This document shows positions 8,371-64,000 of a stretch of DNA of 64,000 nt, piece by piece. The DNA is from Psammoneis japonica (lineage: Eukaryota), in contig QPGO01000056.1 of assembly GCA_008632985.1 (NCBI GenBank), positions 124,001 through 188,000 on the forward strand, read 5' to 3'. Position 1 is the stretch's first letter, and every line of letters starts with the position of its first letter. The notes below the pieces were generated by a model. The model saw only the letters and a program-made list of their open reading frames with translations. It was not told the origin of the DNA and did no database searches. Made by a program: the position numbers and the translations under genes.

Positions 8371-11300
8371 TCAGCCTGTGCCGGCATCTCCCTCAGGTGA
8401 TGCCACACTGAAACAACTGGCGACAGCACGAGTGCCCCTCACTGCGAGCCGTTTCGCCTCCTCAATGCTGGATTTAAACATGGGTCTCACCATTTCCAAC
8501 CAATTTCGTAATCTTCGAGTTGAGTGAGTCAAGTGTTCTTCCACCAAGTCAAACAAAGTGGACCTGTCCTTTGCGAGATGTTTGCTTGAACAGGAGTAAA
8601 TTGCCTTGACTTCTGCCTCTGCATCTCTCCGTTGGGCTGACTTCCTCGTCTCGGCGTCGTGACCATGTGCTGCGTCATTGTGTCGATCCCACAGTTCCCA
8701 CCACTGGGACCAAATGAAGCTTCCCATGGCAGCAGACCAATCCAATCTCCAGATGTTCTCCTCCACATCAGAAGGAAGCACTGTGTTCCTGAGGTGCAAA
8801 GCGTGCGCTGCATTCCATTGGATGGCAAATCTGCCGTCAAACAGGTGCCTCCATCCTGTCAGATCTTGGGGGTGGAAAACCAAAATGACACTGTGGTGCA
8901 AGTCCTCCGGAAATGCTGTTTGATCATGAAACCAAGCTTTGAGGGCTTCCAAGAGAAGATCTCGCAAGGGAGGGGGCATGTGGATGTCATCGCATTTCTT
9001 GCGCAAGCCCTGAAGGAAAGTGCGTTGCCATGATTCATTGTGAGGGCATTTTAAAATGTGGTCTCGATCCTCCATTGGGTGTGAGCAATGCACACAAGCG
9101 TCTGGGCGATTTGGGTTGTGCCGATGCACTGTCTTGTTGGTGGGAAGTAAATCTTGAACCAATTTGACCGCACTGACCTTTCGTCTGATGTTCCTTGACA
9201 TGAGTTTGGAGTGAGACGCCCAATCTATAGACCGAAACACTTCATCTGTCCATGAGTGTTTCTCTTTCATGTGCTGCACAAGTGCCGGGCGAGATGCTTC
9301 GCATCGCATCACCTGCTCAAACTTGGACCCCACTGTGGAATTGTTCAATGCCAGGTTGGCAGAACAATGAGGCATTCGCGGCGCGAGTGGGGTGTCACTC
9401 TGGAACTTTCCATGGCATTGTCCGGTGATCCTGTCTGCGCAGACATTCACTTTGGCAGGTGGAGAAAGCGTCTCATGTGGAGCATTAGAATCTTGGTGTC
9501 CTTTGACCCACTGAACAGCGACAGAAGTGTGTGGAGTGTTCTCAATGGATGATGCAGCCATTGTTTCCATTGACAAATAGATTTCATTGACAACGTCCCA
9601 ATCAGTGGATGTGGTGTTCGCTGTGTGACATCTGCGGTGAAAGTCAAGCAGCGCGGAGTCTGAATCCTGAACAGGGGAGCTTGACAGTGGTGTCTCAAAC
9701 TTCGACACAGGCAGATGACAGCCGAGTTGTTGCAGCACAGGTCGCTTCCCAGAGGACAGCTTGCAAAGCAACATTCCATCACCCGAGTTGAGAATCTCAG
9801 AAATGACAGCACTCCGCATGCCTCTGCTCTGTGAGAAGTCGGGCGAAAACCGAACACTGGACCAGCGCAGTCTACCAGTGCCGCACCATCGATGGTGAGA
9901 GTCCAGCCGAAAGTTGCTGCCTGTCTGATGACCGACCCATCGCTGCCCGCTGTTGACTGGTGCAACTGCAAGCAGTGTGCAATCTCGAAGACGGATGCGT
10001 GCATGTGAACGTCAGCGAAGAGGAATGACTCCCATTGCGGCAATGATGACAACCAAGCTTGAAAGTCCGAAGGAACCGGCATGGTGGGAGGCAGGTCAAA
10101 TGAAGATCCAGTGTGTCCAATGCGCCACCTGCCATCCTTGGCAGTGTCTGCCATCGCTGGAGAAGCCCTTGGTGACAGATCGGGTGCAACCTCAAGAGGG
10201 TCGACAGATTGGGCGGAGCCGTGAGACATGGGGAAAACCTGGAACCCCGAGTCAGACTTTGTGCACAAATGGTCTTCGTTGGGTTCACAGCATGCAGGAA
10301 AGGTCACGCGCATCTCCGTTGCTGGAATTGCCCAAGAACCCAGGGGGCCTTGAAGTTCTAAATCGTCATTCTTGCATGACAACCTGCAGGCACGTTGCCA
10401 TTGTTTCCATGCTCGAGCAGATGGGGCTGCCTGCTCGACTTGGTTCAATGTCAAAATGCTGCCAAGAACTGAGGTGTTTCCTTGGAACTTGTGCTTGTCA
10501 AGTGCTCTGCCATCGGGTGAGGTGATGTCCAAAACTGTGAGGACATTGAGGAACAAGTGACAACAGTTGACCCACCTGACCTCTTTGTCAGAGAAAAGTC
10601 CCGAATCAAGTGCCATGTCCATGAGATGTTGATCATTGTCTCGTTGAAGAGGAAGAACTCCAGGTTCGTCCAGGTCAAAGGAAGCATCGATGCAAGAAAG
10701 GAAGGGTCCAAGTGAGCTGAACCATTTTGACTCAGAATGTGGCAGGCGGGAGTGCACATCCTTCAAAAAGCTGACACCTGCACCCAGATGGAACTGAATC
10801 CAAGACACTGCGATCCATGAAAGGGCATGTGGCTGGCCAACACCTCTCCAGTGTGACAAGAGCTGCGTGACTTGGCTGACTCCTTGTTCGACATCCAAGG
10901 ACCTGAAACCACCATCTCCAAGGGAACATGGGCGAAAAGGACATCTTGTTTCTTGTTGCGATTGTGTCCACATTTCGCAAAGATTGCATGCATGGCTTTC
11001 CTCTGGATCTCCAACAGTTCCTTCGGGAGAAAATGGGTGTTTGGAAGGGTGCACGTCATTGCTGCCAGGTGGCACACAAAGCAATGGGTCCATGCTTCAT
11101 GCCGATCTAACGGGCATGATCAAAGAAACAATGCCACGTCATCGCTCTTCTTCTTTGAGGCCTTGCAGTGCGTCCTTTGCGTTCCAGCCAGAGCTTCACA
11201 GTGGCCCAAAGTCTTGTGGGATGAGTGAGGTGACAGTTGTGTGCTGGGCCTGCTGTCGGACTGATCTGTGGAAGAAATGTCAATTGCAATTTCATCATTG

Positions 11301-14300
11301 CATGCACGAAGGCAAGGCTCTCCGTCCTCCGTAAAGTTCCATTCAATGACATGAAAGGAGCACTTCGGGAGTTCCAGCTCGTGTCCTGCTGTGTTCAGCA
11401 GGTCGCCCAAAGTTGATTGTCTTGCTGCAACATTTTGAATGCCAACTCCAAGCCATCAGGCTGGGGGGATGCTGTGAAGTCATTCACCTGCTTGGATGTG
11501 TCATCCACGCATCCTCGGTTGTAGATCTTGAGTGACACGGAGTGATCAGGAGACTCAAAGAAAGCTCCGTGAGCTTTTTGGTCGAAGAGATCAAACAAAC
11601 TGTCACACACCTGGTTCCAGCACAGTGGAGAGTTTCCACTGCCTTGTCCTGTGCCGTAGATGGGAAAATCCAAAGAGTGGGAGCAAGAGGCAGGAGACAA
11701 CCCAATGGCTGTTTTCAGCCAGCACCGAGCTTGTAGGAGGGCAGATGCAGCTGACTTTGTCACTGTTTTGGGCATGCCGTTGCTTCGACTTTGAGCGCTG
11801 TAGAGCAGGAATGTTCCTGTTGCAGCAGGAGGCACAGTCGCCGTCACTGTGGACAGCCATTTTCCAAGACACCCTGCTGATTTCCAACATCAGTTCTTCC
11901 AAACATGCTGGGACGTCAGCATGCAGGAAAGGACGTGCACCGTAAATGCCTGGGTTGCACAATTTGCGATGCTCCATGTTCTGAGCCAACGAACGCCCAT
12001 GGGACACTTGAGATCAGTTGGAAATCTGCCTCGCAGATGTGAATGACGTGCAACCGGTGAATCTTGTTGTTGCCCGCTTCCTTGAATGTCATCACGTTCA
12101 CAGTGTCCCTCCATCGGTCACAGGAATGTCCCCAGCGCAAGGCGCAATTGAGCAAATTAAGCCGGATTTGCATCAAGGTCTGCTGAGCAGCATCCAGGCA
12201 GATGCATGCATCCGTTGGATCTCCGTCCTTTGTCTTGGCGCGTGAATGAGTGTGGGAAGCATGCATGGCCTTCCAGTGACCGAGGTGCAATCCCGACTTG
12301 ATGGACACAGAGGCAGTTTCCTTCCATGACTTCAACTTACCCTCCAAATCATTGGCCGTGAGACAAGAGGAGACGGCAACAGGTGAACGACGTTCGAGGT
12401 GCTGAACAAAATGAGACATGGCCTCATTGAGTTGGGTGGTGTCGCATTCGCCGTCTAAGATGAGATCAGCGAAAATCGTGTCTGCCTTGCACCGAGGTCG
12501 ACGGACAGTGGAGGAACAGCAGGTGGAGCACCGTGTGCTTGACCAAAATGGCGTTGGTTGCGGTGGCGGATGGCTGAGGCCACATCGTCTGGGGCATCAA
12601 TGGCGACCCAGTCCTCACACTCTTTTGGATTCACCACTGGGTTCCGGGGTGCCTGCATGCTGTTGACACCATTGTCGCTGTCCAATTTGCAGCATTCAAT
12701 CTTACGGAAAAGTTTCTTGGTTTCTTTGGCCTTGCGGACATTCCTGATGATCTTCACTTTGCATTTGGACTCCTTGGTGCCTTCCAATTCAAGTGAAGCA
12801 ATCTTCTTGGCCATTTCATTTTCACGGTGTACGACGCTGTCGGCAGCAACTTGTCCACATTTGGCTTGGGCGGCGCGGAGCTCACACAGACAGTCCTCCA
12901 GGGTTTCCGGGATGACAAAGGAACCTTGCAGCTTGTCTCGGATGGTGCGGATGTGGCTGCCTTGATCCAGGCGAGTGTGCATCATTGAGACCACTCGGCT
13001 GAGAACATGCACCCGATGCCGCAGTTGTGACAATTCTGCTGACCACTCTGGTTCTCTGTGGATCCGACACTTCTTCGCAGCAGCCAAAGAGAACTGCAAC
13101 ATGTCTCAATCTAACCTTTCTGCCAGTTTGTGATCGGGGACGGCTTGATCAAGTGGTGCCTGTGAGCGAGCCAACATGTGTCTGCCAGCTGACATTGGTC
13201 CGATGGCGTCCAAGCAGGTTGTCACTTGGGGTTGAGATGAAGACTGGGCATCCCTGCAGCTGGCCTTGGGCAAGTCAACGGCAGGATTCCCAAACAAGGC
13301 CATTGTGTCAAAGTCCACGATATGAGCATGATGGTCTGACATGGTGCGACAACTGAAAGCTTCATGTCCGCCAAACCTGGCAGCAGACAAAGCACCGGGT
13401 GCAGCAAGCACGAAGTCCAGGCGTTTCCGTCCTCGCGTGCATGTGGAAAATTCATTGCTGCCCATCAAATTATGTGACACATCCGAAAGGGTAAAACGCT
13501 GGGCGAGGGAGGCGAGTGTGTCTGTGTCCATCAAGAAATTGGTGTTGAAATCTCCGCAAACGATGACTTCGCGATTGGAGTGACCAAGAACTCTTGCAGG
13601 TGACGAGATAAATCTGCACAAAAGGCCTTCCTGGGGTCGACAGACTGTCTGCCATTTTGTTGTAGAAGGGCTGCTTGTTGTGCATGAGCCGCAGTCTTTC
13701 CAGGGGTCCTTTGATTTTTTTCACAAACTCTGCAGCACGAAATGAACATGACTTGCTTGCCGTTGCATCCGTCAAACATCTGAGTGGACCAACGGCCCAA
13801 TGGGTCTGATTCTTGGCTGCGGCATCGTGCTGAGATGGAGTTCCCCGACAAGAGGGCCGCACCACCAGGTTTGTGCTGAGCAGTGAAGGGGGTTGAGCTG
13901 CATGAGAAGGTGCCGCGTCCATTGGAAATTGCACTGTAGACAGCAGATCGACACACTGACAGAATGTCATGCTGCGCAGTGTCCAGACACACTTCCAAAA
14001 TGCCCACGACGTCTGCTTGGATCTCATTTGCCATTTGACAATGCTCACGGATGTCACCGCCTCTTTTGTCCAATTTACAACCGTCAGCATTGAATGCATG
14101 CAGACGAGTGAGATGGGGCAGCTCAGGACAAAGATCATCACCAACAGGATCATTTGATGTCAGCTGAGAAAAGTCAACACTTCGAGCGCTTGACGCACCA
14201 TTGCTGGTGCCGTTCAAGAGCAATTGCCATTCGTTGACACGGATGCACTGATGGAGTCACTGCTCATGTTGGGCCACACTCCTCCGAGGAGAAGACTGGG

Positions 14301-16234
14301 GCTCAGAGCTCTGACTGTCAGGTGATGCAGCGCCGCAGGAGAATTTGCGGTGCTTGGCAGTGCGGCGGAACAAATGGGAGATGGTGAGGGACTCGTTTGC
14401 AGGAGATGAGATGTCGGGTGGATGCCTGATTGTTTGAGGGGGTGGAGGTGGCAAAGTCCAACCCCTGTCTAAAAATCCTTCTCCTTGTCACGTGAATCAG
14501 CCGAGCGATCCGGTGTGTCCATGTGATTTGGACGTTTCCTTGCAGATGTTTGGGTTGGATGATTTGCTTGGAGCAGGTGGACTGTCTGATTCATCTGGTC
14601 CTGCACACCCGCAAGTTGTTGAGAGCACTGAGCATGTAAAGCTGCGATGTCCTGCGCGTGTTGTTGTGTGAATGCATTGTCAATCGCCTCCATGTCTCGT
14701 GAGTGTTGAGAACGTAAATCCTCCAAAGCTCTCTGGTTTTCTCTTGCATCTGAGACATGTTGCGTTGGACGTCTGCCAGCTGAACAGAGGGGCAATGGAG
14801 CTGGCGGTGGACTGTGTGGCCTGTGCATGTGAGTGCGGAGGAGAAATCATGCTGGGGCAACTGGAACATCCGGGCAGCGAGGGCAAGTTCTGGGAGTGCT
14901 GGGTGCAGATGTGGGGAGGAACAGCTGATCCTTGTTGAGCACCACGGCCGGGGAAGCCTCGACCTCTGCCATCACATCCACGGCCCGCCGATTGCAAGTG
15001 GTGGGTGTTGATGATTGCCTGAAGCGTTGTTGTCTGTCAAAGGTGAGACATCAGAAAAGGTGAGAAACTCTAAACTGCGGATGCTGGCCAATGCAATGGA
15101 CTTGCCAGTGTCCGACATGTCTTCCATCATGCCAGAAACTTGAGGAGGATCCTTAAAGAGTGGGGTGGGATGGGCTTCTTTCGAAATTGTTGGGATGAGA
15201 TTCATGTCGCACGTGGAAATGGCGGCCCTGGCAGAGTTGAACTCAAGACAGTTGACAAGGACATTGCAGCGGCCGGCAATGGCACTTGATGGGAAGATCG
15301 CTTTCACGTCCTTCAATGCCTTGAGCTGACTCTCAAAATGGAGCATGATGTCCGGAGCAGTGTTCAGCAGTGGAACGACGAAAGCATCTTCGTTCCGATG
15401 AGCTTGGATTTTGACCGCATTGCAAAAGGTGAGGGGGGAGATGTGCCGGGTCTTGGCCATGACAATGTGTGTTGGGAACTTTTCGGACACATGAAGCAAG
15501 GCCTTCCCGGCCGAGCGACAGTCTTCCATCAACACCTCAACAGCGAAGGCAGCAGCACGTGGGGGAGGAGCAAGACCTTTGTTGTTGGCACGAATGGAGG
15601 TGGGCACCAACCTGAACTTTGGCATTTTTGTCTGGCATTTCCCAAGATCACGGAGGAACATTTTTGCAGCTTCGTCGACTGGAGCATGTTTAGTCGCGGC
15701 AGCAATGTGGCATGCTGGGGAGGCCGTTTCGACATCTGATTCGTTCCAACAATGATGTTTCACACCCATGTTGTTAGAATCCAAAATGCTCTGGATGTGA
15801 GGATGAGAGCGAACGTCACAAAGAGGAATTTTTGCAAGGATCCGGTGGCACAGGCGGTGAGTCACGGGACGTTTTTCACCTTTTCGAGTCATTGAAATGA
15901 CGAAGTGTCTTTCGCATTGAAGAGAAGACACCCATTCGGCCACGTTGACGTGGGCAATTTGGTTGTTGTCATTGTCCATGATCTTTGCGTCCTTGTGGCA
16001 GGTGAAGAGAATTTGTTGAAGAACCTGCAAATGAGCGGCAACAAGAGTCGCTGGCTTGCACGATGCTTCTGGGCCACTGATGTCGAAACGAAGGGCAACT
16101 TCCTCAAACTGATGCTTGGTCGGTTTGGAGGAAGGCTTGATGGATGATTGGTCGACAGTGATGTCATCGGCCACAGTCGTGTCATGACGACAGGAAGGGG
16201 TGTGGCTGCCGTCAGCGACGGAAGAAGATGCCAT
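8371..16234 (-). mobile_element. Large non-LTR retrotransposon (LINE, Ambal-like): ORF1 (16234-~14470) and ORF2 with APE, RT, RNase H and CCHC; pseudogenised
   Basis: APE motifs GDFN, RLDFVL, SDH. RT motifs YGTGQGSGNSP, GCVDD, LELPKC. RNase H motifs SDGS, SHRAEACG, QWVKGHQD. Zn finger CVHC..EDRDHILKC. Many frameshifts. UTR limits uncertain (probably ~7500-16520). Confidence 0.9.
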
Positions 16235-17085
16235 GGTGGTTGGCTGTTCTGCGGGGAACCTGGCGTTGAAAATGCTCAGGCACTTTCAGCTGGAATGCGC
16301 GCAGAATTGTGTGGACAGATGGACAGATGGACGATGGCAAGAGGCCATGTCAGTTTCCCTCATTGTGTTTGGCGGACTGCCGGTGATGATGGGATCAGTT
16401 GCGTCGACCCAACATGGGCCGACAATGCTGAAAATTCTTCCCACCCAGCCCAGCCCTCTGTCCACACAGTGTTGGGGAACAAAATGGACGGAATCAGAAC
16501 CACAGATTTGTTCCCTGTTTTCTAGGCTACTGTCTCAGCAGCACCACACGAATGTACATGCTCGTATGTGTTTCTAGAAGTGTGCATTAGATACATTCGT
16601 GTGTTGATTGTTGCGTCCATTCGGTGGCTTGCACCGAAGCGAGGACGAAGGACGAACTGAACACGAACATCCCTGCGCGCGCGCGCTGCATGCATGTTGT
16701 ACGGTATGCACAGGTATGCATGCATCACGCATCAGGCACAAATAATAAATCAGGCACGACGATGACGGGCCGGCATCACACTCTCACATCATACAACACA
16801 TGGGGAGCTTAAACACCAATGAGAGTACGGTATGATGCCGGCATACCTTCGTCACAAACTTATGGCTTGCTGTTTTCACCACGGTGAAGCACGGTGAAAT
16901 TCGTAAAAACTTCATACACCGCGGGAACCGCGAACCGACAAGTGATATTGAACAGGATGCACCTTCTTCCTATATTCTGCACCCGCTCATAAGCATGCTT
17001 AGATGTGTTGAAAACGGGTTCTCCGAGCTTGTCAATATCATGTCTCACACATTCAAAAAGTGTGAGAGACAAGACGAACCACGTC

Positions 17086-29960: not shown

Positions 29961-30154
29961 CAAAAACACTGTAGTTGCGGTGGACGATGGGCCCCACAGC
30001 ACAACGGTGCGTTTGTTTCGCCGGCGATTGAGCGCGACAGAAAAAACTCATAACCTTCCACGTCCGACCGCCGTCCGATCTTCCACGGCTTTCCGCGCTG
30101 GCCGCTGGCCGCTGGTCACGGTAAGAAACAAAGCGAGCAGGAGGTGCAACACAG

Positions 30155-33100
30155 ATGAACGCCATGGCTGCGGTGGAAATTGAAACCAGTCCCTCCGATA
30201 AGAGGTTATACAAGTCCCTCGTGTTAAAGAATGGTCTTGAATGCCTCTTAATCCATGACGAGTCCTCAGAAAAGGCCAGTGCGGCGATGGACGTGAGGGT
30301 CGGCCACCTGTTGGATCCGATTCCTGGACTGGCTCACTTTCTGGAGCACATGCTATTCCTAGGTACTGAAAAATACCCTGATGAAAACGCTTATAATGTG
30401 TATTTGAGTCAACACGGTGGCGCTTCCAATGCGTTCACCGATATGGAATCTACAAATTACTTTTTCGATGTTGCTGCTGATAAATTTGAAGGAGCGCTCG
30501 ATCGATTCGCTCAGTTCTTCATCTCTCCTCTTTTCACCGAGTCGGCGACCGAAAGGGAAATTCAAGCGGTCGATTCAGAACACGCCAAGAACTTACAGAG
30601 TGATATGTGGAGATCCTTCCAGCTGACAAAGACGCTCTGTCGTGAAGAGCACCCTTTTTCAAAGTTCGGGTCCGGCAATATCGAATCACTCAAAGTTGAC
30701 GGCATTCGTGATGCGTTGATTGAGTTTCACGCAAAACACTACTCCGCCAATCTCATGAAACTGGTGGTTTTGGGGAGTGATTCATTAGAAACACTGGGGG
30801 AGTGGGTGACTTTGTATTTTTCTGAGATTCCGAATCAAGATCTTCCCGTGCCTCAGTTTCCTGGCGAGCCATTCACGAGGAACGAATTGGGCAAGATTGT
30901 CAAGTTGATACCAGTAAACGAGCAACGAACAGTTGAGATGCACTTTCCACTCCGGGAGATTGATTCACTCTACAAATCAAAGCCCACTCGGTACCTTAGT
31001 CATCTCCTTGGTCACGAAAGCGAGGGCTCTGTTCTGGCCCTGTTGAAGCGGCTTGGTTGGGCCAATGAATTATCTGCAGGCGAGTCTCGTTCCTGCAGCG
31101 ACTGGGCTTCCTTCTCTGTTAACATTGATCTAACGGAAGAGGGCTTTGAAAGGTATGAGGATGTGGTTTATGTCGTATTCTCTTACCTTCAAATGTTGAA
31201 AAAAGTTGGTCCTCAGCAATGGATACACGAGGAAACTGCCACTGTCGCGGACTGTTCGTTTCGGTTCTTGTCCAAGCGCAATCCAATGGATTACACTTCA
31301 TCTTTGGCCGGTCGCATGCAAATATATCCAATAGAGCATGTCCTGTCTGGTCCTTTTCGCTTCTACCAGTACGAGCCTCAACTGGTGACAGATATTTTGG
31401 AAAAGATGATTCCATCGAACATGTTGCTAATGGTGATCAGCAAGAAGTATGAAGGAAAAACTACGGAGCAAGAGAAGTGGTATGGTACTGACTATTCCAT
31501 CCAAGACATCAACCCTGACCTTTTGAATAGATGGACCTTACTAGATTCGCCTCAAGACCAAGAGGGTGCGGATTGGATGATGGAGGATGGACGATGCTTG
31601 CTTCAGTTGCCAGAAAGAAACGACATGATCGCGACAGACTTCAGCATTGTGCACCTTCCTGAGGCAGACTTTCCCAAAGACGAGCCCCGCCTACTGTTGG
31701 ACGAATCCAATTGTCGACTTTGGTACAAGCCTGATAACGTTTTCGACATGCCAAAAGTAAACATTATGTCCATTTTGAGAACAAGATCCGTGTACGACTC
31801 GCCAGAAGCTTCCGTAATGACGTCAATGTGGGTTCAGTTGCTTCAAGAACACGCTAATGAGTTCACCTATTTGGCTAGTATGGCAGGATTGCACTGCGAG
31901 TTTTCCGATGCTAAGACCGGTGTGGAAATTCATATTTCAGGGTACAATCACAAAGCGTCGGTCCTGGTCGACCGAATCGTCAAATGCATCATGGAGCTTC
32001 CGGAAACAATATCCCCTGAATTGTTCAATCGCATCAAAGATAAGGTCCAGAAAGAATACGAGAATTTCATGGTAGCTCAGCCTTACCAGCATGCTTTCTA
32101 CGTTGCGGAACTTGTTCTGGAACAAGACAAATGGACTGTGGAGGAAAGACTCACGGCGTTGTTCAGTATCACGCGTGATAGGATGGAAGAGTTCTCCCGT
32201 CGTATTTTGTCTCGTTTTCATTTAGAGACATTGGTGCATGGGAATGTTTCTCCAACGCTTGCTAAGGATCTGGCACTCGCTTTGTTGCATGGGCTGAAGC
32301 CAAACGTTGCTTTTGCTTCGTGTTTGCCACAGCGACGGGTGGTTCAACTGGAGGCTTCTTGTGACCACGTTCACAGGTTCAAGGAATACAATGAAGATAA
32401 CACCAATAGCTGTTTGGAGGTTGTGTATCAGATGGGACCAATGGACCTGGCTACGAATGCGGCATTGTCTTTTCTTCACCATCTCCTGCGGGAACCCGGT
32501 ATGTAACTAGCTTCTGGTGCACTTGCTTAAAGCGTCTCATTCTCATTATCTTGTGGTTCATCCACTCCGTTCCTCCATCAAAGCCTTCAACGAACTTCGA
32601 ACCGAAGAGCAGTTGGGCTACATTGTGCACACTGCAGTCAAAACTAGCGGGGATAATATCAAGGGATTGCTCATTTTGATACAGAGTGACTCATTCGATC
32701 CAATTCATTTGGATGATCGGGTGGAAGCGTTTTTGGATCGCTTCCGATCCAAGCTCGTCAACATGAGCCCAGACGAGTTCCAGTCGAACATTGATGCAGT
32801 TGTGAAAAGTTTTCTCGAAAAGGTGAGTTTCATGACAGTATCAACGAGGAAGATCTTGTTTACGTTCGACCTCCTTACAATAGATTTTCATTCCTTAATC
32901 TATTTCAACAGAATAAAAACCTTGGTGAAGAAAGTACCAAATATTGGAATGTCGTCACGAACCGCTCGTATATTTTCAAGAAGTACCAACTCATTGGGGA
33001 GCACGTCGGCAAACTCTCCAAGGATATAATGCTTCGTTTTTTCGACAGATTCGTTGGACGTGGCGGGGTATGTCGTCAGAAGCTCTCAGTTCAAGTTTTT

Positions 33101-53425: not shown

Positions 53426-54201
53426 ATGCTGGCACGCCATCTGTTGAATCATAATGTATTTAACAAAGAGACATTCGACACAGTACTGTAGTCAAGGCGC
53501 GAGAATTGGAATGTCGTAACTTCTAGTTGTACGATAGTGAAACACTTGCATTTAATGGAATCTTTTAAGCTCAGCGTGTCGCCAGACCTGTTTGTCGCAT
53601 AAGGCGAACGTAGTCAGTGTGAGAAAGCGTATCTCTCATAACTGGATGTGTATGTGTTAAGTGTAAAGAACTTCCCGCCAAAAAGTCGTGCTTTGAGTCT
53701 TGTGTGCTGAATTTGCTTCGTTTTTCTTCACACCTTCAAAAGACACCATAAAGACAACTTTGAACTTCAAATGATGGAGGCAATCTCTAGCAGAATCCAA
53801 CAAACAAGCCCAAGTTGCGTATCGCCGGATGCACTAGTACGATTAGGGGCTGATCAGTTGCTTGCTAATACCATTTCGTGACGAAGCGCCGCATACGGTA
53901 CTGCGTTTCTTGGACCTGTTGGGTAGCTTAAGATAGTGGTGAACTTGAGGAGCAGCAATGATGAGCATGCAAACGATATCTGCTAGTCGATGACGACAAT
54001 GTTCCAGTAGACTATTTGAGAGGATGAAAATCATTTGGTGGGACTTAGGTGAGACGGGTTTAGCTACTCACGGACATAGAAAATCCACAATAGCTAGTAA
54101 CCACGTCACACATTTCTTTAGTATGCCTCAATCCCACCCCAAAGCATGATGGAGAACAGCACTACGTACTGGAATGCCGTAAGGCAACGAGCATACACAA
54201 A

Positions 54202-55690
54202 CTAAGGCAATTTCGGCCACTCATACCCTGACTTGTACGCCGCTCCATTTTGCAAATCACAATACATCTTCATTGCCTGGCGATACAATCCCTTTATCCT
54301 CTTGTCCTCTTCTGACCCTTCCTCGTATCCGCTATCAAAATCTCGAACAATGCAACCGGCGCCGTATTCTGCAAGAATTCTCTGTTTGGATTGCTCCTGC
54401 TTGAGTTTGTTGTGATGCAACTTTGGATCCACAAACTTATCCACAATAGTCTTGTCGAGTCGTCCAGGTGGTTTTTGGACGTTGCACTTGGTTGTCAATT
54501 CGTCCGCTATCCGTTGCACCTCGGTGAGTGGGTCGGCAAGGATGGCTTCGTTGCTCGAAAGTACCCTTCCATTGTCATTTTTAGAAGAGAATTCACATAT
54601 TATGGAATGGACAAAAAGCCAAGTCAGTTTTTACCGGTTCAATGCATGGTTCGTACACAAGTGAAAAAAAATGAATCAACCACACAATCAAAACACAAGT
54701 AGTAAGTTTCACCTACCGACACAAGCCTTTTGAATTTTGAATGGCACGCATATTATAGACAATCCACAAGCGGAGCCCATGATCTAATCCAAAGTTTGCT
54801 TCCCTCTTGTTGAGTGACTTGGCAACCTCAAGCGGATGTCGATACGTAAACACAACAGCCGGTTCCGACTTGAGCAGCTTGAGCCACGTAGGCAGCGTAA
54901 TGCACATTCGGGGATCCTTCTGTAACCACGGCGTATTCGCAGGGTCATTTAGAAATCTTAATCCTTTCGTACCCTCTTTAAACGTGACGACACTGTCGCG
55001 TTTGTGTTGCAGTGCTTTTTCCGCATCATAGTTAATGACATTCTGTGACCATGAGATCCTCTGCGCAGCCATGAATTCATCGTTTTGTAGGACAACATCG
55101 ACTCTCTCAAAAAAGCCCTTTTCATTGTCAAAGGCAGCCCCGATTAATGGTTCACCAACCTTGTAGCCCATACCTGTAACTAAAAGACCCGACAGTAACG
55201 ATGTACCAGAACGATGCATTCCCAAAACAACAAATCCCGAGCGCTGTCCACGAGTATTGAGTTTCTGTTGCGAAACTCGTTTCCGGGCTCGCAACACTCG
55301 AAACTCCGCTTCGGCTGCTTTCAACAAGCTCTCATCCGTCACATCATGACCTTGTCTGAAATTATGAATCTGTGACTTTAACAAACTTGCCGCCTTGGAA
55401 ATCTTTTCTTGTCCCACAGATGCCGCATGATGGGCAATCTGTCCCCCCGGTGCGTGGGGGAGATGGGCACCTTCCAACGGACTCGATGGAGAGACATTAT
55501 TATCACCCAACATTGGAACGAGACATGTCAAGATGAGAATGTAAAGACAGAGGAAACATGCAATACCAGCTGTAGCAGGGAGCCCAAACGACAAGTAGTA
55601 CGAGAATTTGTCGGTTCTGTGGTATCGTCTTTTTGATGACCTTTGTGAATTATTACGGGACGATCGCTGTCGATCTGTCGATTCAATCAT
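54202..55690 (-). CDS. Type II membrane sulfotransferase-family protein
   Basis: N-terminal TM segment, VLGMHRSGTS (PAPS loop), DNEKGFFE, KDPR and RHPLEVA.SL. One intron at about 54715-54565. Confidence 0.85.
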
Positions 55691-56742
55691 ATTGGAAAAA
55701 AATTATCGGGTGTCTCGAATATATATCACAAAAATTCTTAAAAGCACAACCCGCTGACAAGTTTCAAGAAGTGCAGGGAACATGCCATTGCCTCTTGTAG
55801 TATTACCGGTGGGTCATTGCCGTATCATGCATACAGTGTACGGTACATTGTCTCGACCGTGCTAAGGATCTGTCCGACGTCCGCAAGCGACATCCAGTTG
55901 CCTTTCGCGCGATCCGTGGGATTTAGCGCGGAGAGACGTTTTTTTTTCGGAGCGTGGATTTTTGTGTGTTTTTGGAGATGACGCTGCGGCGTCCCATGCT
56001 CGGCCTTGTTTGTGCTATTCTTCATCGTTTTCGTTCATTTGAAGACACGGATGTTACTTTTAGGAGGTCGACTGGTTAGACAAGGGCCTTGGTTTGGCGA
56101 GGAACGGTGTTGTGTGTATGGAAATCGAAACATGGGTCTTTTTGCTTTTGTCAGCCACATTTCTGAGCAGCAAAACCCACACTTTGATCTTCATTCGTTC
56201 AGTTCACTTCCACTGATGACACCCACTGTTGATGACAATTGACCACAGTCACGAAAAGTTTCCCATGTCTTGGTCATGCTGTGTGTTTGATTTGTGGCGA
56301 GAAACATTGCACTGTCACATTGACAGGAATCGCCACAAAAAATGAGGATTTGTGATGACCCACACTTGGATCTTTGTTTGCCCAATGCACCTTTTCTGTT
56401 GCTTGCCTTTGGCAGTGCATCTTTGTCATAGATGCAAAAAACATCTCCTGTCTTGTGCATGTTGTGTCTTTGATTTGTGGCGAGCAACATCGGCCACACT
56501 CGTGTGGTCTCACACTGGCATTTTTTGACTGACACCGACCCATGTTTTGATGTTTGTTTGTTCATTTCCTCTCTTTGCTCACACTTCTTTGATTGAATCT
56601 TTTCGTTTTACAGTTTTGAAAGCTTTGTGCTCTCTTGCACTTGCTTTGGGGGTGGGGTCTGTCATCTCACAGCTGTTGCCTCAGAGAACCTTGTCGACAG
56701 AGCAACTGAAGAAAAGCATCCTCTGGTGCTGAGAATGATTCT

Positions 56743-59700
56743 TTGAATGAGACCACCAACAGTGGGTCCAGCTCTGTTGTGGTGGGTCAGACCAGTGAGG
56801 AAAGTCTTTGGTCCAAAACAAGCAAGGACAAGCTGAACTTGACAGGGCATCCTGAAGTGTTTGACCTCGCCCTCATTCGACCCGGGCACATCGACAAGAA
56901 ACTCATGTTGGGTTGCATGGCCACTGCGGATGTGATTGACATGCTGCAACACTCCTGCTTCCAGACCACACTGACCAACATTCAATGAGAACATGTGCAA
57001 CATGTCACTTTGGACAGCACATCCAAGGATCGCCCTTGGCAATTTTTGACCTGGTGTGGGCAGAGCATGTTGATTGACTCAACTCCAGTGCAGCAAGAGT
57101 CAACAACACGCCAAAGCAACCTGGATGTTAAAGCATTGGAACAAATGCATGACAACAACTCAATTCAATCCTAAAATTTGAACAGCCCTTGCTGACTGCT
57201 GCCCATGCCAAGCCTTCAACAATGCCTGGCATGCCATTCAATCTACAACCATGGGGGGGGGGGTCAGAGTGCACATGCAATGGTGCAAAACAAGTGCAAC
57301 TCAGCATTTGCAGTTGTGGGCAGAAACACTGCACAAAACTGAAAGTCATCTTGGATTCCCAATCAACATCAAATGCAGTGACAGCTGTTCCTGCCACTGA
57401 TGCTGCTTCTGGCCAATGTCTTTTGCAGTCCTGGTCTTCTGCCAGGACTGCCTCCATTGGTCTGGTGAGCCATCACATGTGAGATGGTGGTTCAAGGTGG
57501 GGTGGTCACAAAAATTCTCAAATTCTTCTTTGATGCACCCATCCAGAATGCTGCAAGTTTGCAGAAGGCTTTTGCAGTGCCAGGCAGCAATCACAACCCA
57601 GGATGACTCTGCCATGTGAGATGTTGCATGTCAAGTGCAAGAAAGTGAGTTTGTGGATCATCAAACAGATGCTTCCCCACTCCCCACGACAAGCACTCTG
57701 ATCACTTTCCCTGCCTGGAATCTGATTGACACCGTGGCATTGGTGTGAGTGACCTTCTGATGGAAACAACATCACATCTGGTGCTGTTGCTGCCTGTTGT
57801 TTCCTTGAATTGGCTGTCTGCCACAATGTTGGTTGTTCCTGCAATGGTTTCTTCAGCAAGCACAGATTCATTGGGTTGCTGTTGTGTGGCAGGCAGGACC
57901 ATTCAATGGGGTCAGTCTCCTTCTCAAGTTCCATTGATGTGAAGCTGGTGGTCGTGAGCTTGTTGCTTTCATTTTGCATCACTTCAGTTGGGGGAGAATC
58001 CCTGGGCAATTTGTTCTCATGGTCCACTTGGATGGCAGACTTGTTTCCCTCTGCTGCGCTGTGTTGAGGATGTCTTGAGTGGCATTCCATGCCCTTGAGT
58101 CATCCCTGATCCCCTTTTGCTTGCTCCTTCTTGTTGTCCCTCCAGTCTGCCTCACTCTGCTGTGCTGCCTTGCCAACCCAACCAATTCTGCCCAACACCT
58201 GGCACTGCAAAGCCTCAGTCATCTGCACAATGGTTTCCACACTCTTCAATCTGTTGAGAACGAACAAATTGAAATGCAACAGTTGTGAGAAAAGAGTTTG
58301 AATGTCTCAGCAAAATCTCAGAATGAGAGTTTGACCATTTTTGGACTTTCTCCTGCCTCTCTTTTCTCATGTGCACTTTTCCAAGTGCAATGAAGCATGT
58401 CATGCATTGGCATTGTTGGCAGGAAAAGTTTGGCGGCAGCAAAGTGGCATCAGCTGTTGTGAGATTCAAGCATGAGTGGCAGGAGCAAGAAAATCACAGA
58501 AGGAGTTTTGTCCATTGTTCTTGGACTTTGTCTTGCCTCCATTTTCATGGATGCACTTGTCAGAGTAAAATGTGGCATGTGATGTGTCAGTGTTGTTGGT
58601 GGGAAAAGGTTTGGCAGCACAATCCAGCATTGGCTGTTGCTGCCGTCATGGTTGCTCTGTTTCCTTGTGTTGTTTGGGCGAGCAACGTCTGGGAGTTGTG
58701 CATGCAAATTCACTGTTGTGAACAATGACTCATGTCAAGCAATTGATTGATTGTCTTCATGCAGCACATGGGTCGATGCCTCACGCAGCTTGTGAACTTC
58801 CCTCATGCAGCATGTGAAGTCATGAGCCACACAAGGTTGAGCAATGAGAGTTCGTGTTGTGCAGCATGACTTCCCTTGTGCAGCTTGTAAAGTTGCAAGC
58901 TGCACAAGGGAGATTTGCTTGTTAATGCCAATCACATCAGATCCCCATTTGGCATTGAGAACTTTTCCATTTTGGACTCAGCAATGAAGGATCTGAGATT
59001 TTGTCAGGACTCCTCTGTTCCTGTCATTTGTGCTTCTCATCCCGGTGGCCCACTCATTTGAGGTCCATCCAAAATGTGCAAATGCAAGCAACAAACCAGC
59101 TGAGCACCATCCTGGCCATTGTTGACAATGAACCTTGGGAGTTGCTGCAACCTCCTTGTCTTCAGCAGTTTTCATGTTCTTCCTCATCCTTTGCACCTTG
59201 GTGTGCTGTCATTTCTTCCTTGGACACTTCGGGCTCATCACCCTCTTCTTGCTTGTGGCTCATGGCTGCTGCTCAAATCATTGCTGGCCACCGCATGTTC
59301 ATCCTCAACTTGCTTTGCTTGCATCAGCTGAACCAATCGTCTTGTCTGGAGCTGACACATTGTCATCCTCTTCTGAAGAGCTCATTGTTGGAACAGACAC
59401 AACATTGATTTTTCCCATGCAAAAACAACAATGAGACAAGCTTTGTTTTAAAAGAATTGTGGCAAATTTGCGGCCCACATGTGGGTCGCAAAAATTTGTG
59501 ATGAGAATTTTGCGGCCCACATGTGGGCCGCAAAATTGCACGTTAAGCGTCTGATGCGATTGGTGTCAAAGAATGACCATTCACTTGAATGTTGTCACCC
59601 CGTGGCTTTGCCCATGCTGTTTGATGAGCTGCCCACCCTTTCTGCCACCCCAGCACAAGTGGATCAACTCACAGCAGAGCAAGACAATGTGGAAGACATG

Positions 59701-59760
59701 ATTTCAGTGTTGAAAAAGAAAGCCGCATCTCTGTTGTTGCACGCAAGATGCACCTTGGAA
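56743..59760 (+). pseudogene. BCS1-like AAA ATPase gene fragment split by a ~2.5-kb insertion
   Basis: KDKLNL...HPEVFDLALIRPGHIDKKLMLGCM at 56820-56920 and TPAQVDQLTAEQDNVEDMI at 59645-59705. Confidence 0.65.
59464..59537. repeat. Two adjacent palindromes
   Basis: Perfect 32-bp palindrome aattttgcggcccacatgtgggccgcaaaatt at 59506-59537, with a near-identical copy at 59464-59497. Confidence 0.9.
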
Positions 59761-60409
59761 AAAGCTCAACCTCTTCCATTCATTTCAACCTTTGATCTTT
59801 CAATTTCTCAAACTTGTCATTCCATGCTTCCTCACATTGCGCACATGGCACAATGACATGTCCATGGTGCATCCATGCTTGCCAGCTTTTGGATCCGATC
59901 AGACAACTGCAGACCTCCCACTTTCAATTTCAATGGTGATGATGTCTCCTGTGACATTGCTCTCTGCAACTGCAGGTGGAGGCCATGACAGCTTTGAAAC
60001 CACTGCATCATGCTCTCCAAAATGGAAGGTCATCTCTTCTCATCATGGCTGCTGAGGTGGTCAAATTGTCCACATTCACATGGCGCAGCAAACGTTTCAG
60101 TTTGTCTGAGCTTTTTTCAAGCTCTTGTGGAGCAAACTGGCTTTCTTCTGCTTCTTCCTCACCATGTCAGCCATGCAACATGGGTTCTTGTCAGGCACAG
60201 GCTCTTGAGGCAATGCTTCAGACATTGACACACCAAGAAAGTCAGTCTGATTCGATTCTCCCATCAAGACCCATCCACAGTGCAATTTCTGCGGCCCACA
60301 TTTGCCTTGCTCAGGCGACACTTGCGGCATGTTTCTTCCATCCACACTGACAGTGGAACCTCTGCCCAAGCATCTTCACTCAAATTCTCAGTGCCTTGTT
60401 TGCACTGGC

Positions 60410-61320
60410 GACTTGTTCCAGACTTAGGTGCCCTCACGCGCGAAAAAATGACCCTTTTCGCATGAAACGCGCGGTCCACACTTGCGGTACCATTTTCGAT
60501 AGTAAAAACATAACAATTTTCAAATGTGTTGTTATGGGTACATACAGAAAGGTCTTGTGCGTGTACCCATGTATTCGAAACTGTGGATGGACTCAGTTAT
60601 TAGTCCCTAAATTGTACCGTAAGTTGAGAGCTCTGTTTTCCGAGGAGCGATTTATAGATGTCTAAATGTGTGTAGAAACGTATAAAATATTATTCTTATA
60701 TATAAATGAACCCTCTAACATAACATAATTAATCTTTGGTTACAATGCGCGAATACAACTTTGATTCAACGGATCGAATAAAACATACGTTGATTGATAA
60801 GTTTCGGACGACGTGAGAAGAAGGGTAGCTCAGCCCACGCAATGGCGTCGACTTCGGACCATTTTTCACTGTTTAAGAGGCATAAACGATTGAGACACTT
60901 GAATCCGTCGAATATATTGAGGAAGTATACATGGTAATGGCAAAGAAATGGTCCTTAGAGGCAAATTGTGAGTGAATTGAGGCTCAATTGTTGTTGCTGA
61001 CAGATTTAGTATTATTGTGCCGCGCTGCAACCTGTAACAAGCATTTTCACTATTGTTGTTGATGCCATAGACTATATCAAATACGGAGGTCCTCGTCATG
61101 ACATTAAATTTTCCATAAGGCTGAAAAAAGTGGGCCGTCATGGTCACTGAAAGCCATGGCCGGTTTGGCTGTTTGTTTGTTCGAGTTTATTCTGTTTATT
61201 TTACTTAAAAGCAATTGATATGATCAATATAATGAAATATGTACGATGTTGTATAAAGCATAAAAAAATTTTTTTCTGCGAAAAGGGGCAGTTGCGCGCC
61301 ACCTAAGTCTGGAACAAGTC
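60410..61320. mobile_element. Non-autonomous DNA transposon (MITE) with 21-bp perfect TIRs and 4-bp TSD TGGC
   Basis: gacttgttccagacttaggtg (60410-60430) pairs with cacctaagtctggaacaagtc (61300-61320). tggc lies at 60406-60409 and 61321-61324. The interior is AT-rich and non-coding. Confidence 0.88.
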
Positions 61321-61629
61321 TGGCAGCCAGCAGCAATTTTCAACCCATCTTCACTTTTGTGTGGAACAAAAAAAAGTCACACCTGGGGAAGGAAGCAAAC
61401 ATGGGAGCCGCAACTGCCTGCAAAACTTGCCTTCTCAATGATGCCATCAATGGTTCTTGCACTTCTCTTGCATGACATTGTGTTCATTTCCACATGACTT
61501 TGTATTTTTCCTTGTTTGAAATGTCAATCATGACTCACGTGACATTTTTGAATGATTCCCATTGTGTTGTGCTCAATGGCTGGCTTGGAAAACATGACAG
61601 AAATGCCAGGATTGGCTTCTGTGCAACAA

Positions 61630-62320
61630 TTTGGACTGATGTTGTGTGTTTGATTTGTTTGGTCATGCATGCACCCTTGGAGAAGTTGAGCATGATCAAT
61701 CTCGAGCTCATCTCATTGTTGGGCATGCTGCAAGCAACAGCCCTTTTGCATCGTTTGCATGCAATGCCTCTCTGCTTGGAGCTCAACAATCAGCAATGCC
61801 TGGATTGGCTTTAACACAACAAGAAGTTTGGACAACATTTGTGCATTTGATTTGTTTGGTTCACATGCATTTGCAGTGAGCGTGATCAATCTTGCACTCA
61901 TCCTCATTGTTGGATGTGTTGGAGCTGCTTTCGCGTCATTTGTGCACAATGCCTCAGCTTGGAACTCAACAATGACACATGGATTTTCTTTTGAACAACA
62001 AGTTTGGAAAACATTTGTGCGTTTGATTTGTTTGGTTCACATGCATTTGCAGTGAGCGCGACCAATCTCGCGCTCATCCTCATTGCTGGACACACTGGAG
62101 CCGCTTCTTTTGCGTCATTTGTGTGCACGATGCCTCAGCTTGGAACTCAACAATGACACCTGGATTTTCTTTTACACAACAAGTTTGGACAAAATTTGCA
62201 TGTTTGATTTGTTTGGTTCACATGCATCCACAGTGAGCACAATCAATCTCGCGCTCATCCTTGTTGTGCGGCGTGCAGGGACCGCTTTTTTGCATCGTTT
62301 GCATGCAATGGCTCTGGCTG
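61630..62320. repeat. Tandem repeat, ~180-195 bp unit, about 4 copies
   Basis: tttgatttgtttgg recurs near 61649, 61846, 62022 and 62203. Confidence 0.9.
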
Positions 62321-63406
62321 CTTGGCATGCATTTGCATTTCAATCTAATTCAGGTGCCATGTTACACAAGCACGGAACTGTTTGGCTCTGCCAGATGGCA
62401 GCTCATTGCATTTTGTCCAGAGCTCTGCTGTGGCCATTTGCTTTTTTTAAGTTGCCATGTGCCCTGCTTCGCATGGTGATTTTTTGGTGTCATTGACAGA
62501 ATGACAAAAAAGAGGGGAGGAGAGAGAGAGGAGAGAGAGAGGAGAAGAGAGGAGAAAAGAGAGGAAAGAGAGGAAAAGGGAGAAGAAGGCAGAAAGAGTT
62601 CAATGCTGCAAGTCCAAGTGCGTGTTGTCATGCTTTGTTTTGATGCAAAAAAGCATGTTCTTTAGTGTGCCTCCGATGAATGTGAAAAGACATAAAGTTT
62701 GTAGAAACAAAGCACAAGAAAAAGTTTTCCATGTTCAAGTGAGGGTGCACCCACGACACCCAGACAACGCAGTGCAGAAAACCATCCATCACAAAAAACC
62801 ACGTGCTGCAGAAGCAGCCGATGCTCGATCATTGCCGTCAAACCTTCTCTTGCAAACAACACATTAATGCAGGTCAATTCCACAATTTGCTCTGTTGTTG
62901 TGTGTCCAAGAAAACAGAGGTGAGAAAGTCCCAAAATGGGTGAAAACTCCTTCTGTGTTTTTGCTGCTGTTGGCATTGCTTGATTCTCACAACTTTCACA
63001 CTTCAATTTTGTTTTTCTCGACAGATCGAAGAGCACAGACCATCCTTGTTTTGAGAATGTGTTTGATTCAACTCCTTCCCATGGAGTGAAAGAAAACACC
63101 TTGATGAGCATCGTTGCTTTATTTTGCCGCCGCCACCACGTGCTGCATGAGGCAAGAACATGCCCTGAGCATTTCTTTCATGCGATTCCACGCAGTGAGT
63201 GGTGCTCCCTTGTTCAGGGACCAAAAGGGCATGGGAGTCAGCTGTGTTGGAGAAGATGGCATTGGAGCAGGTGGTTTTGGAGCAGTGGCTGCGTGCAGGG
63301 GCTGCGATGTTGCCGTCCATGGTTGGCAAGGAGTTGGGCCACTGTGACGCCATCGATGGATGTTGGGAATGCAGTCAACTCTGCTGAAGAGCACACGACA
63401 AATCGC

Positions 63407-63773
63407 AGCTGTGAGTGGGGACTGCAATGCGACAACGCCGTCAATGGACCTCAGGAAAAAGCAGGGGTTGCGGGAACGCCAAGGGGCTGTGGTTGAGCCA
63501 TCGGGCTGTGGTGTCACCATTGGGACACCGGTCAAAAGTCGAAACAGCAGCGGCAGCAAGAGATGGAAATGGACGTGCCTGTTGTGAGGGCACATGTCGT
63601 AGCTTCGAGTGGGGACTGCAATGCAATGAAGCCATCAATGGACCTTGGGAAAGGGTGGGGGCTGCGGAAATGCTGAGGGGCTGCAGTGATGTCACCATTG
63701 GGATGCCGGTCGAAAGTCGAAATGGCAGCGGCAGCGAGAGATGGAAATGGATCTGCCTGTCATGAGGGCACAT
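63407..63773. repeat. Tandem duplication, ~175-190 bp unit
   Basis: gagtggggactgcaatgc...gagatggaaatgga...gagggcacat occurs twice. Confidence 0.9.
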
Positions 63774-64000
63774 TTGCTTTTTGTTTTGACAGAAGGCAAG
63801 TTTTGATTGCTCTTGCTGGTGATTGCCAGTCTAGCTGCATGGCACAATGATTTCCCAACTGTGGATGCATCTGGTGCTCACATGAATGTCTGCCTCCATG
63901 TCCTTTGCAGTCTTGACATTGGCAGGCACGGCAAGTCCTCCTGCCCCTTTTCTCTTTGTCAGGGCCATGCCTTCCAGGACAATGATTTTGCAAGTTTGGT

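Follow-up and report, generated by a model that had tools for sequence, protein, structure and literature searches.

Targeted hypermutation is a well established means of genome defence, known in fungi as repeat-induced point mutation (RIP) and in animals through the APOBEC and ADAR enzymes. Fungal RIP converts CpA to TpA, which leaves TpA enriched, mutates both copies of a sequence and requires repetition. ADAR and APOBEC3 act on RNA or single-stranded cDNA, on one strand and before integration, with ADAR preferring a 5′ U. For a TpA-directed kind, the only description to date is a 2026 preprint on the chlorarachniophyte Bigelowiella natans (Mettrop et al., bioRxiv 10.64898/2026.01.13.699255). 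That preprint reports, from mutation-accumulation lines, de novo TpA>TpG/CpA hypermutation confined to certain regions at ~1000x background. The targets are integrated single-copy inserts of viral DNA, with 124 clusters in a 95 Mb genome; 24 enriched Pfam families ‘of likely host origin’ are mentioned in passing, and an ADAT2-like adenine deaminase is the candidate enzyme (bioRxiv 10.64898/2026.01.13.699255). Here we describe a 64,000-nt stretch of the genome of the diatom Psammoneis japonica (QPGO01000056.1, 124,001-188,000; referred to as the window, within which all coordinates below are counted), which contains a broken copy of a AAA+ ATPase gene. The locus suggests the same signature in a diatom at a much higher density (~43% of the window). 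As the ruined copy has an intact, apparently expressed twin, the direction of change is fixed without any model. The process is the Bigelowiella kind plus CpG decay, in a diatom, acting on a duplicate of a host gene.

The twin was found by comparing three coded sequencing runs from one sample with positions 54000-64000 of the window at 80% likeness. Single-copy depth in run X1 was 58, and X1 contigs of 403-778 nt in the depleted block (depth 56-70) showed 0-1 differences from the window. Run X2 is recorded as ‘DNA?’, and its RNA nature is inferred: it looks like an RNA run because its contig 9 is spliced, skipping the 151 bp of 54565-54715, which begin and end as GT..AG on the minus strand once the cut is shifted by one ambiguous base, and because of its depth pattern, X2 depth being almost nil across most of the depleted block. 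X2 contig 11 (1801 nt, depth 46) aligned to 56848-57007, 59638-59833, 60085-60311 and 61320-61464 with 17, 25, 30 (19 gaps) and 14 (25 gaps) differences, respectively. It has just 32 nt between the first two stretches, without the 2.6-kb insertion present in the window, and 98 nt at a point where the window has, besides its own 98 nt, an insert of 911 bp resembling a miniature inverted-repeat transposable element (MITE), which the paralogue thus lacks. X1 also holds contigs with the paralogue's letters at depths of 44-68, beside the window's own contig at 56. Because both variants are near single-copy depth in X1, they represent two loci rather than two alleles. The less-mutated paralogue that the original prediction had proposed to look for is therefore apparently an expressed, ~87-90% identical twin elsewhere in the genome, free of both insertions. 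No X2 contigs carried the window copy's own letters, although contigs show presence and not absence.

Polarity was read from 27 differences, the best supported of the at least 86 that separate copy from paralogue, each letter being judged in its local context; three rows, the first of those for 56744-56779, were classified by reading the sequence by eye. Nine of the 27 have TA in the paralogue and TG or CA in the window, seven have CG in the paralogue and CA or TG in the window, and none runs in the reverse direction (window TA/CG, paralogue TG/CA). The other 11 consist of six transversions, one CA/TG double counted as two, and three others. Counted by context, TG/CA positions take 16 of the 21 transitions, against 43% expected from the composition of the piece (p = 0.0024). 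The direction is also set independently, because the consensus of homologous proteins has R, Y, Y and R at four of the changed residues. These include the two codons in Table 1 and a second Tyr>Cys (TA>TG) at 56956-56958. Both strands were hit, since TA>CA and TA>TG alternate within 30 bp: TA>CA at 56889 and 56895 lies close to TA>TG at 56915, 56957 and 56973, and CG>CA and CG>TG are both present. The paralogue keeps TA/CG at 16/16 polarised sites, eight of which are synonymous; its synonymous third positions with TA/CG include CGT, GAT and CTT each followed by A, CTA twice, ACG and GCG. As TA/CG is kept even at these positions, the paralogue has not undergone the same decay. These comparisons show that the changes arose in the window copy only, on both strands within tens of bases.

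The four paralogue-matching pieces contain 0 TA and 11 CG in 833 nt, and host open reading frames (ORFs) of the same window contain 2.0-3.6 TA and 4.7-7.2 CG per 100 nt. The depletion of the copy is far beyond chance, and the hypermutated stretch reported in the original prediction is real. Its guessed Arg>His and Tyr>Cys replacements proved exact (CGT>CAC at 56887-9, TAC>TGC at 56914-6). Its expectation of a perfectly polarised spectrum held in part, as no TA/CG change was reversed but 11 of the listed 27 belong to other classes. To its question whether the parent is affected too, the 16 polarised sites answer no, although the one CA/TG double leaves room for rare hits. If the fraction of other differences (11/27, ~41%) holds for all 42 differences of the first two pieces (356 nt), background divergence comes to ~4.8%, which two lineages share. 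Per site, the ~93% loss of TA would then have outpaced the background by a factor on the order of 100, a rough figure drawn from few sites and not a measurement.

Further comparisons show that the hit stretch is a dead, 5′-truncated duplicate of an apparently expressed diatom AAA+ ATPase gene plus downstream non-coding sequence. A 92-aa frame at 56710-56988 (+) contains ...LNLTGHPEVFDLALIRPGHIDKKLMLGCMATADVIDML... and reads ...SLWSKTSKDKLNLTGHPEVFDLALIRPGHIDKKLMLGCMATADVIDMLQHSCFQTTLTNIQ up to a TGA stop. This in-frame TGA (56989..56991, +) lies within the homologue-matching region, where the homologue consensus is K; our guess is that it derived from CGA, the paralogue letter here not being among the listed differences. 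Against 1.84 billion cluster representatives (phmmer in HMMER), the frame gave 184 matches at E <= 1e-3, including 8 at <= 1e-10 (best 3.3e-14). Those homologues are 50-65% identical across frame residues 44-92, and their part aligned to the frame corresponds to PF00004 positions ~81-131. Against PDB (phmmer) it matched NVL (1.1e-5), AFG2 homologue A (2.9e-5) and BCS1 (0.0057). The 92-aa frame alone had no Pfam match, and no longer protein matched it at E <= 0.001 among 137 candidates. A second frame at 59452-59856 (+), which carries ...LPTLSATPAQVDQLTAEQDNVEDMISVLKK..., alone yielded nothing meaningful in Pfam or PDB. As judged from its homologues and from the AAA chains in PDB, the 92-aa frame is a real AAA+ (PF00004) fragment.

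In tblastn against the window, 147 of the 150 best homologues matched 56692-57051 (+), and 53 of those 147 also matched 59473-59796 (+) in the same order, with the matched parts ~0-29 residues apart or overlapping. Pieces A and B of Table 1 belong to one protein, because these 53 homologues are collinear and the paralogue contig joins the two pieces with 32 nt between them. The TPAQV segment therefore does lie ~2.6 kb downstream, past an insertion, as had been predicted. With 130 full-length homologues (700-830 aa; tblastn, E <= 1), consistent matches occurred only at pieces A and B and never began before 74% of the homologue's length, other matches in the window being scattered (E 0.04-1); the same 130 proteins located no Walker A/B part of the gene anywhere in the window. 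Self-BLAST found no second copy of the gene piece within the window. By these alignments, the window copy is a fragment that holds the last ~26% of the protein and encodes no working ATPase. The stretch 57029-57051 (RPWQFLT) resembles the same consensus columns as 59629-59649; a long target-site duplication was considered for this pair and dropped as chance, as only 10 of 21 bases are in common.

The depletion extends well beyond the gene copy. Over the whole window, observed/expected (O/E) ratios are 0.35 for TA, 1.42 for TG, 1.44 for CA, 1.07 for TC and 1.09 for GA. Segmentation by TA density gave eleven depleted blocks amounting to 27.6 of 64 kb. Host genes of normal composition stand between the blocks (ABC2 transporter, DNA polymerase delta subunit B, ArfGap, insulinase, leucine-rich repeat proteins, GOST and S49 peptidase). 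The block with the gene copy is at least 8 kb long, and in it nearly all TpA and the greater part of CpG have turned into TpG/CpA. It is preceded by a TA at 56117, after which none follows until 56429; TA returns at 60425 inside the MITE-like insert, and depletion resumes at ~61321 and continues to the window end at 64000. Within 56206-60353, O/E is 0.04 for TA, 0.22 for CG, 1.80 for TG and 1.89 for CA. The border of another block, at 30049, lies 76 bp before the insulinase ORF (30125-32503, 793 codons), whose best named relatives are from Ditylum brightwellii (57%) and Odontella aurita (55%), with pennate diatoms at 42-46%. An origin from Bigelowiella natans was considered and rejected, because the nearest named proteins are those of diatoms and the host ORFs are uninterrupted over up to 793 codons.

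Summed X1 depth was 69-130 over the gene copy (~1-2 copies), 250-780 over the 2.6-kb insertion and 860-1300 over the repeat upstream, and segments present in 1-2 copies (59678-60345, depth 69-115) are as TA-free as those present in 4-20 copies. Sequences of differing origins and copy numbers are thus in one saturated state with common sharp borders. An in-place process acting on a delimited block fits, because unlike pieces share the saturation up to these borders. TA and CG appear to decay at two speeds, since a block with a long interspersed nuclear element (LINE)-like element (8475-16415) has lost its TA (O/E 0.06-0.11) but retains much of its CG (O/E 0.51-0.67), whereas the other large blocks have CG O/E of 0.16-0.24. 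As the loss of TA also removes TAA and TAG stops, long ORFs in depleted blocks are no evidence of coding. Among 55 ORFs of >= 70 aa in 55982-64000, Pfam gave only two sub-threshold chance matches (Cortexin and CRPA), and among 144 ORFs of >= 115 aa across the window it gave no domain in the 56-64 kb block. Of the 87 TA that survive in the 27.6 kb of blocks, 19 are in TTAA. Relative to normal sequence, survival is ~0.46 for TTAA, ~0.22 for CTAA/TTAG and ~0.01-0.02 for ATAT, GTAC and ATAC/GTAT; TTAA thus appears to be a poor substrate. Surviving CG is enriched in GCGC and GCGG. The pattern of surviving sites may reflect a flank preference of the process or newly arisen sites.

The MITE-like insert behaves differently from the DNA around it. 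It has an X1 depth of ~5000 against 58, and therefore ~85 copies, and contains 42 TA in 60501-61000. Its other copies hardly differ from it, 61268 being the one position with a listed difference, and none of its ORFs has a Pfam match. Either it came after the decay or it is too young to show it. Because this ~85-copy element is unmutated, composition does not track repetition alone, and high copy number by itself does not predict depletion here. As regards the 2.6-kb insertion, an X1 contig of single-copy depth (61) joins its end at 59633 back to its start at 57038 with ATGCAG between, which could represent the element in tandem or as a circle, or a differently arranged copy. A perfect or near-perfect palindrome, TTTGCGGCCCACATGTGGGCCGCAAAA, occurs twice in succession (59462-59539) close to the 3′ end of this insertion and once more, in partial form, 750 bp further downstream (60285-60314). 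The palindromes may represent a hairpin at the terminus of the inserted element. TA depletion starts, at 56118, partway through the repeat upstream of the gene piece (55900-56700). This repeat is present at ~15-22x single-copy X1 depth, with a very high X2 depth (1230 in 56004-56337), and has within it a duplication of 183 bp (56175-56307 and 56358-56490).

Table 1. Features of the depleted block and gene copy (window coordinates)
Feature	Position	Strand	Evidence
Piece A, C-terminal half of AAA domain, ...LNLTGHPEVFDLALIRPGHIDKK...	56692..57030	+	homologue search, tblastn
Piece B, C-terminal TPAQV segment, LPTLSATPAQVDQLTAEQDNVEDMISVLKK..., up to the frame's stop	59626..59856	+	tblastn, collinearity
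Non-coding stretch 3′ of the frame, still paralogue-like, TA-free	59857..60409	+	paralogue contig match
Continuation of the copy past the MITE-like insert, TA-free, paralogue contig match	61321..61464	+	
His codon CAC; paralogue Arg CGT, homologue consensus R; CG>CA plus TA>CA across the codon border	56887..56889	+	
Cys codon TGC; paralogue Tyr TAC, consensus Y; TA>TG	56914..56916	+	
Left part of the TA/CG-depleted block	56118..60409	.	only 10 TA in ~4.3 kb
Insertion of ~2.6 kb, TA-free, absent from paralogue contig, ~4-13x single-copy X1 depth	57031..59625 (borders +/- ~10 bp)	.	
MITE-like insertion, 911 bp, normal TA/CG	60410..61320	.	perfect 21-bp terminal inverted repeats, 4-bp TGGC target duplication
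Tandem repeats of ~180 bp, TA-depleted	61567..62307	.	

Among described systems, the locus most resembles that of Bigelowiella. In both, TpA undergoes transitions to TpG or CpA on either strand (nine listed sites here, of both kinds), and the changes are region-limited, here to eleven sharp-bordered blocks amid host genes. The differences are that the organism is a diatom and not a chlorarachniophyte, that the target described here is a host-gene duplicate among repeats and not a viral insert, that ~43% of the window is affected as against 124 clusters per 95 Mb, and that CpG, at an O/E of 0.16-0.24 in most blocks here, goes unmentioned in the text of the preprint, which likewise contains no paralogue-based polarity test. 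The CpG component is like the decay of methylated transposons in its changes (CG>TG/CA at seven listed sites, CG O/E 0.22) and in its confinement to repeat-rich DNA. Such decay would leave the faster and fuller loss of TpA unexplained. According to PMC9998398, diatom transposable elements are CG-methylated through DNMT5. A limited full-text search found no paper describing TpA hypermutation or RIP-like decay in diatoms.

We think it rather probable that the gene copy was hit because it is located in a targeted, silenced and repeat-rich block, rather than because it is duplicated sequence. Under this positional reading, the changes would have been made in place, at the DNA level, by a context-specific transition process aimed at the whole block. 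Its fast, saturating TpA component could be the deamination of adenine to inosine, as proposed for Bigelowiella, or a modification of thymine, and its slower CpG component would most simply be deamination of 5-methylcytosine on methylated repeats. The gene copy is split by the ~2.6 kb repeat-derived insertion and was split again later by the young MITE; on the positional reading, the fragment would have been hit on account of its location, and the MITE would have arrived later or too recently to be marked. The original prediction had instead likened the process to RIP, in which doubled sequence would be detected and mutated wherever it is located. Its claim that non-transposon, duplicated sequence is hit was confirmed, given a host-gene copy with a paralogue in the spliced run of the same sample. 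The hit sequence indeed duplicates a host gene (~2 copies by depth), most of the remaining block is multi-copy (depth 250-1300 vs 58), and RIP shares with the present process the sharp borders, the dinucleotide-context transitions, the ruin of repeats and duplicated host genes and the character of a mutational genome defence. Diatoms, for the most part centric ones, moreover carry DNMT4, a protein related to RID of fungal RIP whose function is not known (PMC9998398); for the CpG component we regard it as a lead and nothing more. However, RIP raises TpA, whereas here TpA is destroyed and nearly absent from the block, and RIP mutates both copies, whereas the paralogue was spared at all 16 polarised sites, synonymous ones included. 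The hit piece is a duplicate, yet the ~85-copy MITE-like element in the same block is normal in TA/CG, though possibly just very young. The RIP analogy therefore fails on direction and copy symmetry, and probably on trigger. We accordingly prefer position to duplication as the trigger and hold duplication sensing to be unlikely, if still a serious contender.

A variant of the regional process would start from a modified thymine at TpA. A TET/JBP-type enzyme might, for example, hydroxylate it to 5-hydroxymethyluracil (5hmU) to mark the DNA for silencing, and misreading or misrepair of the modified base would then put C in its place. TA is self-complementary, so that T>C and A>G are indistinguishable from the sequence, and in dinoflagellates 5hmU takes the place of T with a preference for TA and TC and both marks and silences transposable elements (PMC11572971). 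Over the whole window, however, TC/GA has no matching deficit, and there is no evidence of 5hmU or of a TET/JBP enzyme in Psammoneis japonica, none having been sought; we consider this variant quite unlikely. Editing before integration, with a retrocopy of edited RNA or cDNA (ADAR-like A>I or APOBEC-like C>U) inserted already mutated, would account for a copy that is 5′-truncated and whose collinearity with a transcript-like contig extends over >600 nt of non-coding sequence on the 3′ side. The window also has a LINE-like element (Exo_endo_phos match at 13109-13720), animal ADAR and APOBEC3 likewise produce deaminase-driven clustered transitions on parasitic sequence, and ADARs favour U before the edited A, according to the Discussion of the Bigelowiella preprint (bioRxiv 10.64898/2026.01.13.699255). 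Yet TA>TG and TA>CA within 30 bp, together with both CG>CA and CG>TG, are impossible from a single edited strand; resident DNA of mixed origin is affected on both of its strands, the unrelated flanks and the 2.6-kb insertion sharing the saturated signature up to the common borders, and no poly(A) remnant was seen in the parts inspected. This makes editing before integration very improbable. Least credible of all is an artefact in which modified repeat bases were systematically misread in sequencing or assembly. Both affected dinucleotides are plausible targets of methylation or modification, and the supporting run may be the window's own assembly source and so not independent, but X1 contigs at single-copy depth agree with the window at all but 0-1 positions, the copy also differs from the paralogue by transversions and indels, and its amino-acid changes, in-frame stop and two insertions are as in a real old pseudogene.

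Several points weigh against the positional reading of an in-place, TA/CG-directed process. One locus cannot separate being hit by position from being hit by duplication. Polarity is read from only 27 differences out of at least 86, 11 of these 27 are of other kinds, and when all 27 listed differences are taken together the excess at TG/CA is weak (p = 0.07). A protein-level reversal test against the homologue consensus does not discriminate: of 22 mismatches, five were fixed by TG/CA reversal (32 sites), and other transitions likewise fixed five (34 sites), homologues of 50-60% identity being a poor proxy for the parent. The double difference at 56778-9 (paralogue CA, window TG) could mean occasional hits on the paralogue. 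The RNA nature of X2 rests on a single spliced contig and the depth pattern, and its record says ‘DNA?’. Finally, the paralogue was seen as contigs only, so the 2.6 kb could be a pure insertion or an enlarged intron, and the copy could have originated by DNA duplication or by retroposition. Polarity is thus supported by the listed differences in a strong yet imperfect way.

The pair formed by copy and twin indicates that the target of such a process need not be viral or transposon sequence, and the spared paralogue provides a built-in, polarised ruler for rate and sequence preference. More broadly, and at somewhat less than even confidence, we suggest that diatoms possess an enzyme-based defence that edits DNA specifically at TpA, like that of the rhizarian Bigelowiella, and that it acts with CpG methylation decay on any DNA in a silenced block, duplicates of the cell's own genes included. 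If so, the defence would be old and widespread in the stramenopiles, alveolates and Rhizaria (SAR). It would also shred young gene duplicates and influence how gene families evolve in one of the major groups of ocean algae. The locus makes directly testable what marks a sequence for editing (position, silencing or duplication), the rates of TpA and CpG decay against background, and the enzyme.

The copied gene is well supported as a host gene rather than a gene of a transposable element, because its family is conserved diatom-wide. The family consists of diatom AAA+ ATPases of ~740 aa, with 708 proteins at E <= 1e-30 to one homologue, P0133. Its named members are nearly all from diatoms (Cylindrotheca, Nitzschia, Thalassiosira, Attheya, Cyclostephanos and Seminavis among them), the organism name of one record being incomplete. 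The original prediction was right as to a host gene, whereas ‘BCS1-like’ is an annotation label only. The label ‘chaperone BCS1’ appears in many JGI records and in the Seminavis record, and other records have ‘SpoVK/Ycf46/Vps4 family AAA+ ATPase’ or ‘FtsH’. Pfam on 15 homologues gave AAA-type domains only, split into N- and C-terminal parts in the near-full-length ones, and a BCS1_N domain was detected in none of the 15 (E <= 0.001); the window copy has no N-terminus. Against PDB, full-length P0133 scored 4.1e-23 with AFG2 and 1.3e-21 with yeast BCS1, the latter giving the longest aligned stretch, through the C-terminal lid, so that the two score about alike. The family is like BCS1 and the classic-clade AAA+ ATPases in having an AAA domain with the ...DPALIRPGRIDKK... 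segment. It differs from BCS1 in its length, in a long insert that splits the AAA domain, in the lack of a detected BCS1_N and in a slightly better PDB score with AFG2.

Some minor features of the window were also recorded. The neighbouring sulfotransferase-like gene (ORF 54716-55702) has a 151-bp GT..AG intron at 54565-54716 (-), seen in a spliced X2 contig. X1 depth wholly disagrees with the window letter at 57954, 60048, 62766 and 63838, and these four disagreements are assembly errors or strain differences. At 57954, the G of a CG in the window is A in the reads, which is another CG>CA. The LINE-like element spans 8374-16285 (-), with frames of 546, 549 and 437 codons in addition to the Exo_endo_phos match given above, and strand skew is seen in 13622-16415, where TG occurs 319 times and CA 222 times.

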